Shown: one piece after another, positions 27,401 through 39,400 of the stretch
How the letters are laid out: each line of letters opens with the position of its first letter
How positions within the stretch are numbered: position 1 is the first letter of the stretch
Position numbers: made by a program
Assembly (NCBI GenBank): GCA_963738405.1
Contig: CAVTWJ010000002.1
Coordinates: forward strand, 64,001-128,000
DNA from: a candidate division FCPU426 bacterium
GTDB taxonomy: Bacteria > Oederibacteriota > Muellerivitia > Muellerivitales > Muellerivitaceae
DNA length: 64,000 nt
Direction of reading: 5' to 3'

Positions 27401-30400
27401 AAAAATAAAAGGCCGTCCACCACCGGCGGCTCGGTGAGGGTATGGATAATCTCCCTTTCCTCCAGGGTTCCTTCCGGCAGGGTCGCGAGGGTCAAAAGCT
27501 TTCCATGTCGCCGGGCTTCTTCTTCCATGCCCGAAATCGAAACGGCCGCGAAGAGATTGAGGGAAGGGGTGACCACGCCCAGAAACCCGGTCTTATGGTT
27601 GGCCGCCAAGCCCCTGGCGAAGCGGTTGGGCCGGTACTGCATCTTTTCCATCATGGCTTTGACTTTTTGTTCGGTCTCAAACTTCACCGCCAGCCCGTTT
27701 AAAACCCTTGAAACAGTCGCCTTGGAAACACCCGTGTTATCGGCGATCTGTTGAATCGTCACACCCATGTCGGCTCCTTAACCATGTTGCCCCTGAAACT
27801 TAAAGGGAATTTTTGTAACCGGTTTAATGTAATGCCAAACACAAGATATAAGAAGAAAAAACAATGGGAAAATTTCAATTTGTTACAAAAAGGGATTTTG
27901 TACTGCGTATTAAAGGGTCTTCAGAAAAGAAAAATCAGGGACAGTTGGGGACGAGGCGCAGGTTATCCATGTAGATATTCCCTGTTCCGTTTGGAATTCC
28001 GTTCGAGTTTCCAGTGGCGCTATTGTTATAAACAAAGGTCCACTTGGTCATGCCTTCCGTGGGAAGGATGGTTCCCGCCGAAAACTTAATGTTCCAAACC
28101 ACGCTTTGCGACCCGGCGTTAATGGTCGGGTAGTCGCCGCTGATGGCCTGGAAATACTTACTTGAGGGGCCGTCATCCGCCACGAATAAAAGGGTGTGGT
28201 ATCCCGCGTCGTTAACCACCGATGGGTCCACCGTGACATCCATAATCACTTGGGTGGTATTGGTAAGTACCAGCGGTGTGGCAAAGGTCATGATCAGGAT
28301 ATTCTGGTTGAAGGAAACGGGCGTGATGATATCCACGTCCAGAGAATAGAGCCCCTGCGTCGGATAGTAGGGCGACTTCGAAAGGACAGAGGTATAGGTA
28401 ACGCCGTTGGCCGGGTCATTGAGGGTGATACCGTTATCTGAAACCCCGCCTCCAATGGTTTCAAAGCCAGCTAGAAGGGTATCGGGGCAGGGCGCGTGAT
28501 AAACCATCGCGGCGGCGGATGGCGTTTTTTGGGAACAGCCATCGGCCCAAACGAACAAGAGAACAAAAGCCGCCGAGGCCAAAGCCGGTATTAGAAAATT
28601 CATTTTCTTCACAACTCCCCTCCCCAATCCCGTCCCACCAATAATACCGCGCTGTACCGATTAGAACCGGACTTCATAGCTCACCTCGCCGAATTGGTTG
28701 TTCAGCGTGCCCTGCATTTGCCCTGAAGGAAGCATGTTCCCGAAAGACCAGCCGTAATCCAAATAGAGGCTGGAATTGCGGTTGACGTTAAAGGTTGTGG
28801 ACCAACGCAGGCTCTGGACGGTTCCATTGACCGTAAAAGACGAGTACTGATTTAAATCGGAGCCGTCATAGAGGTAGCTGTACCTGGCGTAAAGCGACCC
28901 GCCGTATCCATATTCGGTACCATTCGCCTGCCTTTGGCTATAAGCCACGGACATTTCCCACACGGGAAGGATTTCGACCCTAACTCCCCCGATAGCCCAA
29001 AGGCTGGTCAAGGTCCCCAGGGAACTGTTGGTTTGTTCGTACCGGAAATTGGTTCCTATTTCCAATGCCCTATCCCACCCTAGTGAAGGCCCAAGGTTGA
29101 AGCGGGGCCCGATATTGATGTAAGTGAAATTACGTGTCGGCGCCGCCCCGGAAGCGACCTGAACCGGCTGAAGTGTGGTGCTGTTGGGGGGCAAGGCCAT
29201 TTCTCCGGTAATCTCCTGGGCTAGATAGGCCGACCCCAATAGCTTCAAAGCCTGTTTTTCGAGAGCCTTGATATCAAACTCAAGGCCGAAACCCCTTCGG
29301 TTGGGGGTCGCCAAGCCATAGGGAAAGGTATTGTCCTGTGTTCGGTCGTAGAAACTATAAATTTGCCCAGCCCTCGGAACATTGGTCAGGAAATCCTGGT
29401 CCCGAAGCGGCGCTTGCCATTGTTCTTCTGAAGGGACATATTTCGCCATGCTGGAAACATCGGTGACGGCGTCCTGCCGGGTCTGGGCTAAGGGGTTGTA
29501 ATAGTAGGGGTCCACATTCAGGTAGACGAGGGAAACACTGGAATCCCCGGCCAGGAAGTATGGCCCGCCCGTTAGGGCATAATCCGTCGTGACACGTTCT
29601 GGGTTTAATTTGTCGTCTTGGTAGCTGGAATAGGCGTATTCCACGCCAATACCGGCGTAAACATCCCCGCCGAAACCCATTTTGAAATCGGGTTTGACGC
29701 TTCCAATTAGGTATTGGTGGGCCCAGGTGTTCGGATTCGTGGGGCTATAAGCGGACCCTGGGGTGTCGGAATTAAGAGGCTCATCCAGAACTAGACCATA
29801 GGTATCCAACTGGGCCTGGAAAGAAAGATTATCCGAGTACCACTTTTTGGATCTTAAGGAAGCCGTACCCGCCGCCAGCCAGTCCGTGAATTGGTCGGGG
29901 CCAAAATACCATCCGCCAAAATTACCCGTGTCATCGAACCCGTTGCGGATCATGTGGATGAAGGCGGACACCTTCAACAGGTCCAGCGCATCCGAATCGG
30001 GCCAAAGGACCTTGGTGCCTATCTTTAACCCCCTGAAAGGCCAATTGGGCTCATCATCAAAATAGCTCTCATACTTCAAATTCTCATCCTGGCGGGCCCA
30101 CATTTCGGGGGCATATTTCAAATCCAACGTATTACGGTTCCAGAGGGTCAAGGGCGTGTAGGATTGCTCAAAATCTCCCAAGGTGGCCGAAAACCAGGGT
30201 GGATTGAAGTTCAAAGCCAGTTTCTGCAGCTCCAGCAGGAAGTTGCTGCTGGCCGACACGCTGTCCGGAGAATCTAAAACAAAAGACCCGTTTTGGGAGG
30301 CATGGGATGGTGCATTGAAGGGATTTCCCGAGAAATTCGTCTCAATCCGGAAAATGCTGTCGAAACTGATTTCTTTGGTGACGATCGCCGTAGGCGCCAG

Positions 30401-36400: not shown

Positions 36401-39400
36401 ACATGGAGGGCCATGGCGGTGCCGTTGGCTCCCCCCGGAACCACCAAAGGCGTATCCACGGTTCCGCTATAGATGTTGACGGTCCAAAGTCCGCCTTTCA
36501 TGCCGTACAACTTGGGATTCATGCGGACCGAGCCGTCCTCGAAATTGCTGATCAAGGCTTGGTCGGGTGGAATCACGATCTTAGGGGCAGAGTTTGCCGG
36601 GTCTTTTAAACCATCCGAGAGGGGTTCAGATTTGGAGCCTTCGTTAATAAGGACCGCCCCGCAACCCGCGAGAAGAAAAACCACAGACAGGCAGAGAAAG
36701 AGGGTGGTTGCTTTTGCCGGGGCCATAATCACCTTTGAGGGGAAATCATATAGAACAACCAATCGGAACGAATGTCCCTTTTTCGGCAAAGCTTACTTTA
36801 CTAAAACCACCTGTCATATAAAACCAATAAAGTTCAAACCCTCGTTGTAAAAGGAAACATTCTTAAACAAATTTAAAAGTTTCCCGTTTCACGGGTCTTT
36901 CCTTTACCCGGTAACTTTCACCGGCCCTTTAAAAATGATCCAAGTCCTGCAAGATTTCTTTTTTCACAAGCCGGTCGAAAATTTCCCAGGCCGGACAATT
37001 AAACCTATAATGATTTTCCCCTAACCCAATTCAGGAGACTTTCATGAACCGTCCGTCCCAAATATTTCTGCTGGCGTTTTTCTCGGGGGCCCTGGTTCTT
37101 TCCCAATCCGCCTGCACGATCCGCCCGATGGTGACGGCGGATAAATCCCAAACCGCCGCTTCCGACGTTATCCAGTTTTATTCCGCCTCCTGGGCCGACT
37201 CTTCCGGCAAGGACGGCAAGGGCGGCGTCAGCGTAGTATGCTCCGGCGACAGCCACGCCTTTTTGATTCGCCCCGACGCCACCAAGGAAAGGATCGACTC
37301 CAAAACCCTTACCGACAATCCCGACTGGGTGGTCTATGACAGCGGCAGTAACTCCGATTCCTGCCTTTCCTACGAATTCACCTGGGTCACAAACGTCAAC
37401 GACAAGTTTTGGGGGAAAAGATGGAGCGGCGGCGGGGTGGCTTTTGATAAAAGCTGGTCCACCAAGAACCTGGAAGACGCCAAATATCTGGTCTTTTACG
37501 CCAAGAGCAATGCCCCGGGGGTCGATTTCAACCTAAGTCTCTCTGGAACGACCGATCAGGTCGCCACGGGCAACGTCAGCGTTAAGGATTTCGCCTTGGG
37601 CCATCAAATCGGGGCGGATTGGACCCAGGTCATCATTCCTATTTCCTCCTTCCCCAACCTTTCCAAGATGGACCTGTCCCAATGCAAGATGATCCGGTTT
37701 GACCTGGCGGGCGATTACCCCGAAAACGCCCTGGTTTATTTTCACATCGACAAGATGTACTTCACCGACAGCCCCATGGTGACGCCCGTGAACAACCTGG
37801 GGTGGCAGCCCCTCCGGGATGGGGTCTTTGTAATTTGGGACAAGTCCCCCGATGAGGCGGTGGATCGTTTCATCCTGACCGTGGACGGCCAGCCTGCTGG
37901 CGAAGTGGATGGAAAACAACGCACCGCCAAGCTTCCCCTTTCCCTCTTCCAAGCCCCCGGCGTCCACAAATTGGGCGTGGTCGCGGCGGACGGCAAAAAC
38001 ACCTCTTCCATCCAAACGGTCACGGTGGATTTGACCCCCCATGCGGTCGCTACAGCAGTCGTAAGCCTGGCTTCCCAGGGGGACCATCCCATTTCGCCCT
38101 ATCTCTTTGGCTTCAACTACATGTCGAAGGACAGTCTTAAAAAAGTCGGCGGGACCCTGAACCGTTGGGGCGGCAACGCCACCACCAACTACAACTGGAA
38201 GGAGGACGCGGACAACAAGGGAGCGGACTGGTATTTCCTCAACGCCGCCCAAGCGGGCCCGGGCGCGCCCGAGAAGGATAAACGCTACTACCAATTCATC
38301 CAGGACGCTTTCGACGCCGGTTCCCAAGCCATCATCACCATACCCACCATCGGGTGGGTGGCCAAGGCGCCGCCGAAAGGCGGGCCGGAACTTTCATCCT
38401 TTCCCACCTCCCTCTATCCCGACCAGGAAGCCAATGACGGCCAAGGCTCCGGAAACGGGGTTCTGACGAATAAAAAAGGGTTGGTTTGGGATAACGACCC
38501 CAACCGTAATTACGTACCTTCGACCCCCGAATTCCAAAAAGAATGGGTGCAGACCATCGTGAAGAATTTCCATTCCGCTTCCCAGGGCGGGGTCAAGTTT
38601 TACCAGATGGACAACGAACCCGGCCTCTGGAACTGGAACCACCGGGATGTGGCCCCCAAGGGAATCAGCTACGACCAGATGGTGGATTTAAACGCGACCT
38701 ATGCCCAGGCGGTCAAATCGGTAGACCCCGACGCCAAGGTCATCGGCATGACGGCCTGGGGGGTGAAGGAACTGGCAGGGTCGGCTTGGGACGACATGCC
38801 CGGGGGCGTGGCCCATTACAAAGGCGACGGCACCGGCGATCGATGGACCGACCGCAAGGCCCACGGGGATATGCCCCAGGTCGCTTACTTTCTCCAGGAA
38901 ATGAACAAGCGCTCCCAAAAGGCGGGTATCCGGCTGATTGACTACCTGGACGACCACGGCTATCCGGAAGTCTGGGGCACGAACGCCCAGGGTCAAAACG
39001 TGAATGTACTGGGAGACTTCGCCTATGATCCGGTCCTTACTCCCAAGCAGTTTGACGCCCTTCGGATCTTTTACGACCCAACCTTCGAGGACCCCTCCAG
39101 CTGGTGCGCCCAGCCAAGCCTCAAACCCTATCTCTTTGATCCCTTCCGCCCCCTGATCCCCAACTTGAAAAAGATGATCGCCCAGTACTATCCAGGCACC
39201 AAGCTCTCCATGACCGAGTACTACCCGGCCAGTTCCCACTACTATCACGGGGGCCTATTGGAGATCGTGACTCTGGGTATCTATATGAGGGAAGGCATGG
39301 ACCTGGCCTGCGACTGGGGTTCTTCTTGGGAAGGCAATTACGTGTACCTGGGCCATAAGTTCTTTAGTAATTACGATGGGAACGGTTCCAGAGTGGGCGG

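Follow-up and report, generated by a model that had tools for sequence, protein, structure and literature searches.

The window analysed here (64,000 nucleotides of DNA from a candidate division FCPU426 bacterium) contains five co-oriented minus-strand ORFs, separated by gaps of 5–33 nt or overlapping by 17 nt, and this arrangement confirms the operon of a lipoprotein, three barrels and a lipoprotein described in an earlier note on this DNA. None of the five ORFs has a Pfam match above cut-off, in line with what had been reported for the barrels. The features of the locus are:

35959..36789, minus strand: lipA, leading lipoprotein, 276 aa; probable start ATG 36723; lipobox LLAGC
33233..35926, minus strand: B1, A-type barrel (assigned to the CHU_1276 class), 897 aa
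30984..33227, minus strand: B2, B-type barrel (assigned to the CHU_1277 class) with SLH-like domain and coiled coil, 747 aa
28661..31000, minus strand: B3, second B-type barrel, paralogue of B2, 779 aa
27935..28627, minus strand: lipB, trailing lipoprotein, CBM-like, 230 aa
26779..27768, minus strand: LacI-family regulator downstream of the operon (Pfam LacI and Peripla_BP_3)
27814..27827, plus strand: 14-bp operator-like site upstream of lacI, with an identical copy at 39778–39791
37044..39686, plus strand: GH44 endoglucanase/xyloglucanase with CBM30-like N-terminal module, divergent from the operon (Pfam Glyco_hydro_44, E 1.3e-59)
39811..40518, plus strand: lipC, third CBM-like lipoprotein (44.7 bits against the trailing-lipoprotein profile, a weak match)
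40593..52356: sugar-binding protein, GH2, sugar ABC transporter and GH31 of the alpha-xylosidase type (Pfam)
58677–60998: GH29 (Pfam)
20563–24805: xylose/galactose catabolic genes (Pfam)

The genes at 40593..52356, GH29 and the xylose/galactose catabolic genes form what we take, from established knowledge of these glycoside hydrolase families, to be a xyloglucan-type utilisation set. The 14-bp site occurs in two exact copies genome-wide, both within this locus, the second lying ahead of lipC (39811), and near copies are found beside lacI or lipoprotein genes in 4 of the 16 related loci checked. It is a candidate operator. Promoter and terminator counts are no higher than in shuffles.

A second copy of the operon, also claimed earlier, is found on another contig (C9:270897–281278), between rlmD and lepA. 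It is 40–54% identical to the window copy gene by gene and has two trailing lipoproteins. The glycoside hydrolases (GH44, GH2, GH31, GH29) and LacI are co-located with the window copy and not with the rlmD–lepA copy. The caveat attached to the latter stands, as 21 of 40 relatives' loci are of the rlmD/lepA type, situated among housekeeping genes with no sugar enzymes adjoining. A recognised glycoside hydrolase is present inside the 11–20 kb fetched in 12 of the 19 non-rlmD loci.

Barrels, stalks and lipoproteins

The AlphaFold2 model of B3 (pLDDT 83.9) consists of SLH-type helices, a coiled coil and 22 strands, and thus agrees with the barrel behind an SLH-like helical N-terminus described before. 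The SLH-like domain (aa ~30–86) and coiled coil (107–159) are followed by the barrel (162–778), with long conserved loops L3 (280–319) and L7 (497–567). Earlier, only one of the three barrels had given a confident model; B1 has now been modelled too (22 strands, pLDDT 75.6), and the strand count of B2 is taken from its homology to B3. In B1, a signal peptide, an SLH-like domain (aa ~27–83), a Pro-rich disordered linker (85–175) and a coiled coil (178–235) precede the 22-strand barrel (241–896), which carries a C-terminal Phe. A terminal Phe or Tyr is present in every full-length member of the barrel family. The coiled coil passes straight into strand 1 in the B1 and B3 models and there is no Pfam plug or TBDT match, in agreement with the earlier lack of a TonB plug family match. 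Whole-model fold searches returned only generic barrels at ~10% identity; porins, TBDTs and ushers tie in Z value, and no family assignment was drawn. The Atlas neighbours of the barrel are, as noted earlier, SLH-barrel clusters.

The SusC/SusD PULs of Bacteroidota likewise unite, in one locus, glycoside hydrolases and a regulator with a barrel of 22 strands and lipoproteins that bind glycans at the surface. Unlike these PULs, the operon models are plug-less, their profiles show no similarity to TBDTs (≤0.4% probability against seven of the genome's own), several barrels occur per locus and SusD is lacking. No SusD (PF07980) match occurs anywhere in this 90.7% complete genome, the B. thetaiotaomicron control being positive, or among 57 lipA-family members. 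A canonical SusCD system was rejected. Since the genome has its own TonB (four matches) and TBDTs (eight matches), the operon is not needed for energised uptake; some non-canonical energy coupling of the barrels may exist.

The N-terminal region earlier called SLH-like is a true OmpM-type stalk, present on B1, B2 and B3. In PDB profile searches all three stalks match Veillonella OmpM1 (E 2.2e-10, 7.7e-6 and 1.3e-3, respectively), and the B1 model compared with the SLH/stalk part of OmpM1 (8BZ2) gives a Z of 11.9 and an rmsd of 2.1 over 82 aa, profile and structure alike showing the stalks to be homologous. The barrels resemble that of OmpM1 at the fold level only (Z 11.4–12.6, rmsd 6.6–6.7). 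The order of signal peptide, SLH domain, coiled coil and beta-barrel is the same in OmpM1 of Veillonella parvula (PDB 8BYM/8BYS/8BZ2) and in Deinococcus SlpA, with 16 and 30 strands, respectively, against 22 in the operon barrels. OmpM1 is constricted by L3 and L7 (PMC10628300), likewise the longest conserved loops in B3. Unlike OmpM and SlpA, the operon has three non-equivalent subunits, a fixed gene order and lipoproteins.

The SLH domain is missed by single-sequence PDB and Pfam searches. PF00395 does not exceed its gathering cut-off in the three barrels, in 49 members of the B1 family or anywhere in the genome, and a match above this cut-off is the operational definition of OmpM in bioRxiv 2021.05.31.446380. 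In further contrast to OmpM, the ligand motifs are divided among the subunits: the SLH Trp is kept in B2 alone (W49 in 36/39), which has Asn instead of the TRAE Arg (N75 in 39/39), whereas Arg or Lys at the TRAE position is found only in B1 (38/38) and B3 (39/39), and the complete motif (Trp plus TRAE Arg) in no single subunit. CsaB (PF04230), too, is mostly absent, with a match in 8 of 31 family genomes. The average charge patterns of the three coiled coils do not clearly separate homo- from hetero-specificity. TolB_N is absent from the 90.7% complete genome, and a canonical Pal-Tol context was rejected on this ground. The stalk probably gives the barrels a role in tethering the outer membrane.

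The most constant accessory gene of the operon, lipA, encodes one presumed CBM-like beta-sandwich domain, and its Cys is invariant across 57 aligned homologues. The CBM11 fold proposed earlier for the lipoprotein gains weak sequence links, as the lipA profile aligns with repeat modules in a GH8 enzyme and in a protein bearing CBM_11, and the lipoproteins in equivalent positions in relatives give weak CBM_11 or CIA30 matches. PDB sequence searches with the lipA and lipB profiles gave nothing significant; PF03425 has no match in the genome, but none in any control either. The trailing lipB varies between loci and is a candidate substrate-specific binder.

Distribution and homology to the Cytophaga chu_1276–1280 locus

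B3 is matched in 31/31 family genomes, as claimed, and the conserved gene order extends to all 41 loci examined (chosen by B3 or B2 matches), each with B1-B2-B3. In 38 of them lipA lies directly upstream of B1, two others being cut by contig ends and one being without lipA, and one or two trailing lipoprotein genes follow B3 in 40/40 loci with the flank present. The supposed near-absence outside the order is true for a single-sequence query only: by profile, the B3 family is found in 55 and the B1 family in 67 of 99 phylum genomes, and clear barrel relatives occur in Bacteroidota. Scanning of genome contigs gave no barrel relatives with a single sequence and 23 loci with an alignment. Outside the order, A and B barrels are adjacent in 29 of 34 loci, the remaining five being at contig ends, and 28 of the 29 complete loci have A+B alone. 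The trio arose through duplication of B, a pair-to-trio duplication being observed twice (FastTree). GH9 is present in 58 of the 67 phylum genomes with an A barrel and in 6 of the 32 without, kin not being independent. All five f3-family genomes carry GH9 and GH5, but no barrel was detected in them.

B2 gives a full-length profile match to a Cytophagaceae barrel family (100%, E 2.5e-43, 533 columns), and B2 and B3 match the CHU_1277-class profile at 99.8% and 99.9% over ~500 columns (B3, E 4.7e-31), compared with at most 4.8% in controls (own TBDTs and reversed profiles). The match of B1 to the CHU_1276-class profile is 81.8% when direct (E 1.1e-5, 399 columns reaching the C-terminus) and 99.5% and 99.8% through 11 phylum intermediates. 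The Bacteroidota reference clusters hold, in this order, an A-barrel, a B-barrel, two ~375-aa proteins and GH9. In six Bacteroidota loci 7–9 of 10 published CHU_1279 residue positions are matched at offset 0, against ≤4/10 in 145 other ORFs, each allowed the best of 42 offsets, and the CHU_1277 class was assigned by its place two genes upstream of the CHU_1279 orthologues so fingerprinted. Up to nine of ten CHU_1279 residues together with GH9 indicate that these clusters are orthologues of Cytophaga hutchinsonii chu_1276–1280. As homologue and cluster look-ups returned no protein named as C. hutchinsonii, it is the fingerprint residues and the order of genes that tie the clusters to this species. 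For the operon lipoproteins, the profile probabilities are 3–45% to the CHU_1278 class and <1% to the CHU_1279 class, the trailing-lipoprotein profile reaching 45% to the former, <1% to the latter and 75% to CBM30-type neighbours of the Bacteroidota clusters; equivalence to CHU_1278/CHU_1279 is one of position and presumed fold only. The lead that Fibrobacter has a similar cluster was not confirmed: a locus-tag search gave no paper, and PMC6851124, in the passages covered, does not speak of it.

Like chu_1276–1280, described from three related Bacteroidota (PMC12016534), the operon has a barrel homologous to the CHU_1276 class followed by homologues of the CHU_1277 class, then CBM-like lipoproteins, with an adjoining endoglucanase and no SusD. 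It differs in the SLH-like domain and coiled coil on each barrel, foreign to the Bacteroidota forms, in the duplicated B barrel, in its single-domain lipoproteins, one of them ahead of the barrels, with weak homology to CHU_1278/1279, and in the cellulase, which is a divergent GH44 in the window locus and a GH9 in line in chu_1276–1280. Published genetics ties the latter cluster to cellulose use and low-glucose growth (PMC12016534).

Proposed function and alternatives

We propose, with a probability of roughly 0.65, that the operon encodes a heteromeric (possibly heterotrimeric) wall-tethered, TonB-independent porin for plant-glucan oligosaccharides, whose transport, assembly and tethering we infer. 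The TonB-independent glycan uptake suggested earlier is supported by the chu_1276/chu_1277-class homology and the co-occurrence with GH9; a system of a new kind is not, the operon being a tethered, triplicated variant of the atypical PUL described in Cytophaga. The three stalks would braid into a single A-B-B' heterotrimer suspended from the cell wall in the manner of the OmpM homotrimer; loops 3 and 7 would fold inwards into the pore and determine its selectivity. At the pore mouth, surface lipoproteins would keep hold of the glucan chains that nearby endoglucanases (here GH44) have cut, and the oligosaccharides would enter by diffusion, with glycosidases in the periplasm and ABC uptake clearing them. 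The window copy would represent a LacI-controlled xyloglucan-type version and the rlmD–lepA copy a constitutive one, probably also a general porin and outer-membrane tether. Several observations count against the proposal: the rlmD/lepA-type loci that lack sugar enzymes alongside, two genomes (G003 and G066) with barrels but neither GH9 nor GH5, the f3 genomes with these enzymes and no detected barrel, the weak or missing sequence similarity of the lipoproteins to CHU_1278 and CHU_1279, the scarcity of CsaB together with the split SLH motif, and the genome's own TonB and TBDTs.

A heterotrimer is suggested by the division of the SLH motifs (Trp in B2, Arg/Lys in B1 and B3) and by pair-to-trio duplication having occurred twice; a literature search found no report of a heterotrimeric porin. 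The fuller version, in which the three barrels make up one heterotrimeric wall-tethered porin with a single intact ligand groove and a CBM-lipoprotein cap, and CHU_1276/CHU_1277 represent this plug-less channel without its stalk, is tentative, the balance tilting against it. The same uptake role might instead be filled by an A+B dimer, with B2 and B3 as alternative partners per substrate, or by homotrimers like Veillonella OmpM1–3. We regard this as somewhat unlikely: the prevalence of A+B alone outside the order, the entirely stalk-less Bacteroidota homologues and the sufficiency of one OmpM paralogue in V. parvula (PMC10628300) speak for it, but B2 and B3 are both retained in every complete locus, even after whole-operon duplications, and the invariant stalk residues specific to each subunit are complementary.

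The barrels could also be mainly OmpM-like tethers and general porins, as V. parvula OmpM1 itself is (PMC10628300), a duplicate having been recruited secondarily to the sugar-gene neighbourhood in the window and the lipoproteins being structural caps. The stalk on all three barrels, the family-wide copy between rlmD and lepA and the lack of TolB_N, hence of a visible canonical Pal-Tol tether, are consistent with such a role, as are two genomes (G003, 99% complete, and G066, 97%) that retain the barrels with neither GH9 nor GH5. What makes it unlikely is that the stalk-less Bacteroidota homologues adjoin GH9, GH3, GH18, GH31, GH2 or GH5 genes and are required for cellulose use in Cytophaga (PMC12016534), that the system is missing in the GH9-free families f4–f7 and f9, and that the SLH ligand motifs are degenerate and CsaB mostly absent. 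The usher and MtrB barrels among the top Foldseek rows bring to mind a role other than import, in which the barrels would scaffold cellulases and CBM lipoproteins at the surface or export them. Such a role is highly improbable given the generic nature of these fold matches, models without periplasmic chaperone-binding domains, and the poor growth of chu_1276 and chu_1279 mutants on low glucose, which points to uptake (PMC12016534).

Cytophaga-type bacteria take in fragments of cellulose with neither cellulosomes nor SusC/D, by a route that the field has yet to establish. For the proposed porin, the predicted architecture (two barrel classes, plug-less, with a loop-3/loop-7 constriction) turns a TBDT-like guess into a hypothesis testable in the genetically tractable C. 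hutchinsonii, and the fusion to an OmpM stalk connects glycan uptake with outer-membrane tethering, the trio suggesting a heterotrimeric porin. Should the fuller version hold, one widespread TonB-independent oligosaccharide gate would lie behind contact-dependent cellulose use across unrelated phyla, and the published screen based on Pfam (bioRxiv 2021.05.31.446380) would have overlooked a lineage with an OmpM-type tether. The chu_1276–1280 genes are now tied to a far wider barrel family, which reaches two thirds of the sampled genomes of another, cellulase-rich phylum (the 67 of 99 above) and recurs, alongside other glycosidases, in many Bacteroidota-like loci from metagenomes.

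Architecture and conservation of the barrel operon

Five minus-strand ORFs occupy positions 27935-36789 of the window (G000:C2:64001-128000), neighbouring ones lying 5-33 nt apart or sharing 17 nt, and none of them (0/5) gives a match above the cut-off in a Pfam scan:

lipA, minus strand, probable start 36723: lipoprotein of 276 aa
B1, minus strand: barrel of 897 aa
B2, minus strand: barrel of 747 aa
B3, minus strand: barrel of 779 aa
lipB, minus strand: lipoprotein of 230 aa

B2 is a paralogue of B3 at about 25% identity, and no similarity between B1 and either of them was found by BLAST. 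The operon was earlier noted to occur twice in this genome and throughout the family, and this is upheld: a second copy with a gene-by-gene identity of 40-54% and two trailing lipoproteins lies on contig C9 (C9:270897-281278), and B3 is matched in 31/31 family genomes. Forty stretches from 24 family genomes, centred on B3 matches (one on a B2 match), were compared together with the window, and the order B1-B2-B3 is found in 41/41 loci, with contig ends interrupting three and split genes in two. lipA precedes B1 on the 5' side in 38 of the 41, two being cut by contig ends and one being without lipA. The setting of the C9 copy, adjoining a long rlmD-like gene and/or lepA, lepB and hemN, recurs in 21 of the 40 stretches; the remaining 19 lie elsewhere, 12 of them with a recognised glycoside hydrolase within the stretch.

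Some local irregularities were also observed. In genome G004 (L068:9552-14142 and L033:6810-9726), one operon copy has B2 and B3 each split into two ORFs and another has B1 split, for which sequencing error or decay are candidate causes. Three B1 homologues (L038, L043 and L053; rows 8, 14 and 16 of the B1 alignment) carry a TPR repeat. The rlmD-like gene 5' of the C9-type operon (L050:2020-6207 = G000:C9:266520-270707) encodes 1395 aa, with TRAM and tRNA/rRNA U5-methyltransferase domains within the first ~480 aa and no Pfam or PDB sequence match in the ~900 aa beyond; full-length long ORFs of this type (1281-1541 aa) are present in 18 of the 20 loci having an rlmD-like gene. Two further genes (G000:C9:262624-264544) lie some 6 kb 5' of the C9 operon; judging by eye from their N-termini, one is LacI-like and the other, of 260 aa, begins like a CBM.

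Both lipA and lipB have a signal peptide ending in a Cys, which is invariant among 57 aligned homologues. Links to carbohydrate-binding modules are weak, by sequence (CIA30 in 4/57 members, SGBP-B in 2/57) as well as in the Atlas rows (CBM30 and SGBP-B, 0.89-0.90), in the matches of the lipoprotein profile to modules repeated within a GH8 enzyme and in those to genes neighbouring the barrels in Bacteroidota (45-75% profile probability). The CBM11 fold of the earlier note is thus a candidate one.

Stalked barrels without a plug

AlphaFold2 models of B3 (pLDDT 83.9, from 92 sequences) and B1 (pLDDT 75.6, from 49 sequences) follow a common plan, in which a signal peptide leads into three short helices and a disordered linker, after which a long helix runs straight into strand 1 of the barrel. 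The barrel of about 22 strands behind an SLH-like helical N-terminus, described in the earlier note for one protein, is thereby borne out for two, as 22 strands are counted from the DSSP list of each model and a plug domain is absent from both. The top PDB match to the profiles of all three barrels is the stalk of Veillonella OmpM1 (E 2.2e-10 for B1, 7.7e-6 for B2 and 1.3e-3 for B3), and the B1 model superimposes on 8BZ2 with a Z of 11.9 and an rmsd of 2.1 across 82 residues. In the Atlas, B1 is surrounded by SLH-barrel clusters, SlpA among them, one having Ca. Goldiibacteriota as its commonest phylum; for the barrel itself, fold searches returned generic matches only. Loops 3 and 7 are the two longest conserved insertions of B3 (16 and 27 positions, respectively, at least 90% conserved), and the model is highly confident for both. 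According to PMC10628300, the OmpM1 pore is narrowed by inward-folded loops 3 and 7, and we infer that loops 3 and 7 of B3 likewise occupy the barrel lumen.

The SLH motif residues are distributed among the three chains. The SLH Trp is confined to B2 (36/39 sequences), and the Arg or Lys of the TRAE motif to B1 (38/38) and B3 (39/39), with an invariant Asn at this position in B2. The Trp and the TRAE Arg are ligand contacts in the grooves between SLH units (PMC10628300). A B1/B2/B3 assembly would hold one complete ligand groove, which fits a heterotrimer without proving it. CsaB-family genes are present in 8/31 family genomes. Pfam SLH has no match across the source genome, and the OmpM screen outlined in bioRxiv 2021.05.31.446380 used the Pfam SLH cut-off and would therefore overlook these barrels. 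The same genome (90.7% complete) contains LolA, six OmpA-domain, four TonB and eight TonB-dependent transporter (TBDT) matches, and no match to TolB_N or SusD.

Relatives in Cytophaga and in the phylum

When the B3 profile was searched against 1.84 billion representatives, many stalk-less proteins of ~570 aa were retrieved beyond the family (E 1e-22 to 1e-10), assigned, where named, to Cytophagaceae, Bacteroidia or Bacteroidota. In the metagenome loci studied, the best 78 of 235 confirmed stretches, the gene order is fixed: a K2 gene (620-770 aa), the K1 barrel and one or two genes of 300-450 aa, often followed by a glycosidase (GH9, GH3, GH18, GH31, GH2 or GH5). The layout is that of chu_1276-chu_1280 in C. 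hutchinsonii. Ten published residue positions of the 375-aa CHU_1279 were used as a fingerprint; 7-9 of the ten are matched at offset 0 in six loci and 6-7 at offset -1 in two, versus at most four, with the best of 42 offsets, in 145 other ORFs of similar length. GH9 then follows in the loci bearing the fingerprint. K2 is therefore assigned by position to the CHU_1276 class and K1 to the CHU_1277 class.

Profile comparisons connect the window barrels to both classes. K1 is matched by B2 (99.8%, E 2.6e-29, 500 columns) and B3 (99.9%, E 4.7e-31), and K2 by B1 (81.8%, E 1.1e-5, 399 columns reaching the C-terminus), while the genome's own TBDTs and reversed profiles reach at most 4.8%. B1 is also connected through 11 intermediates from the phylum (I1; B1-I1 99.5%, I1-K2 99.8%). 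In a second comparison, the match of B2 to a 50-member family, selected by the B3 profile, has a probability of 100% and covers 533 columns, beginning at strand 1 and ending with the final residue. No stalk was found on K1 or K2, and as K1 is aligned from just behind the signal peptide there is no space for a plug. PMC12016534 describes chu_1276, chu_1277 and chu_1279 as important to cellulose use, chu_1276 and chu_1279 mutants as growing poorly at low glucose, CHU_1276 as a predicted barrel with TBDT matches and the binding domain of CHU_1279 as similar to CBM11. A literature search, largely without subscription papers, found neither a description of these barrels in this lineage nor a report tying chu_1276/1277 to SLH barrels. 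At L184, L186, L190 and L196-L223 the CHU_1276/1277-type pair adjoins GH18, GH3, GH31/GH2/GH5 and glucosamine-isomerase genes, suggestive of versions for chitin, beta-glucan and xyloglucan.

The Goldbacteria/FCPU426/Firestonebacteria group probably lies on the Gracilicutes side. One barrel had earlier been noted as near-absent outside the order, a limit that does not hold in profile searches: of the 99 phylum genomes, 67 have the A-type barrel (B1, CHU_1276 class), and A is followed by B (the B2/B3 type, CHU_1277 class) in 29 of 34 loci fetched outside the order, the other five being cut by contig ends. Among these 34, only G074 has a three-barrel locus. When 44 selected B-type sequences were placed in a tree with FastTree, B2 grouped with B3 (0.987) and the two G074 B-type barrels with each other (0.816), and the trio therefore probably arose twice from a pair. 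Some phylum barrels (L130, L131 and L136) have a coiled coil and no detectable SLH, or are nearly stalk-less, and may be transitional between the tethered form and that of Cytophaga. GH9 is present in 58/67 genomes with the A-type barrel versus 6/32 without, a comparison in which related genomes are not independent; the families of the phylum divide into cellulase-rich and cellulase-free ones, a split that, like the Ca. Goldiibacteriota cluster in the Atlas, agrees with the Goldbacteria/FCPU426/Firestonebacteria group of PMC7031533. In one family of five genomes (f3) GH9 and GH5 occur and the barrel does not; in two genomes (G003 and G066) the barrel occurs with neither enzyme family.

Sugar-gene setting and proposed function

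The window carries, by Pfam, GH44, GH2, GH31 and GH29 genes, sugar-binding and ABC transport genes, a lacI gene, a xylose-isomerase-like gene, an FGGY kinase and a galactokinase, which from the known roles of these families we take to be a xyloglucan set. An identical 14-bp near-palindromic site, a candidate LacI operator, lies upstream of lacI (27814-27827) and again, at 39778-39791, ahead of the 39811 lipoprotein gene. Of 16 related loci examined, four (L031, L032, L033 and L038) have near copies.

We regard the operon as an uptake system for glycan oligosaccharides, with a probability of roughly two in three. The architecture, homology, linkage and context of the operon are observed directly. 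In the proposed mechanism A, B and a second B-type barrel would be assembled upon a single three-stranded stalk tying the complex to the cell wall, the lipoproteins would cap the barrels, and oligosaccharides would diffuse via the plug-less pores. The full case, in which B1, B2 and B3 form a heterotrimer, is offered tentatively and is the less probable part of this proposal. With regard to known systems, the operon would work like the atypical polysaccharide utilization locus of Cytophaga; its barrels are built like OmpM and fall outside the Pfam definition of OmpM, and by the defining tests the operon is not a SusCD system. In or beside the sugar locus (window 25817-26737, 54796-57219 and 61336-63744) there are also ORFs of 306, 280, 480 and 802 aa without a Pfam match, and the one at 61336-63744 (C2:125336-127744) has weak similarity to lipB.
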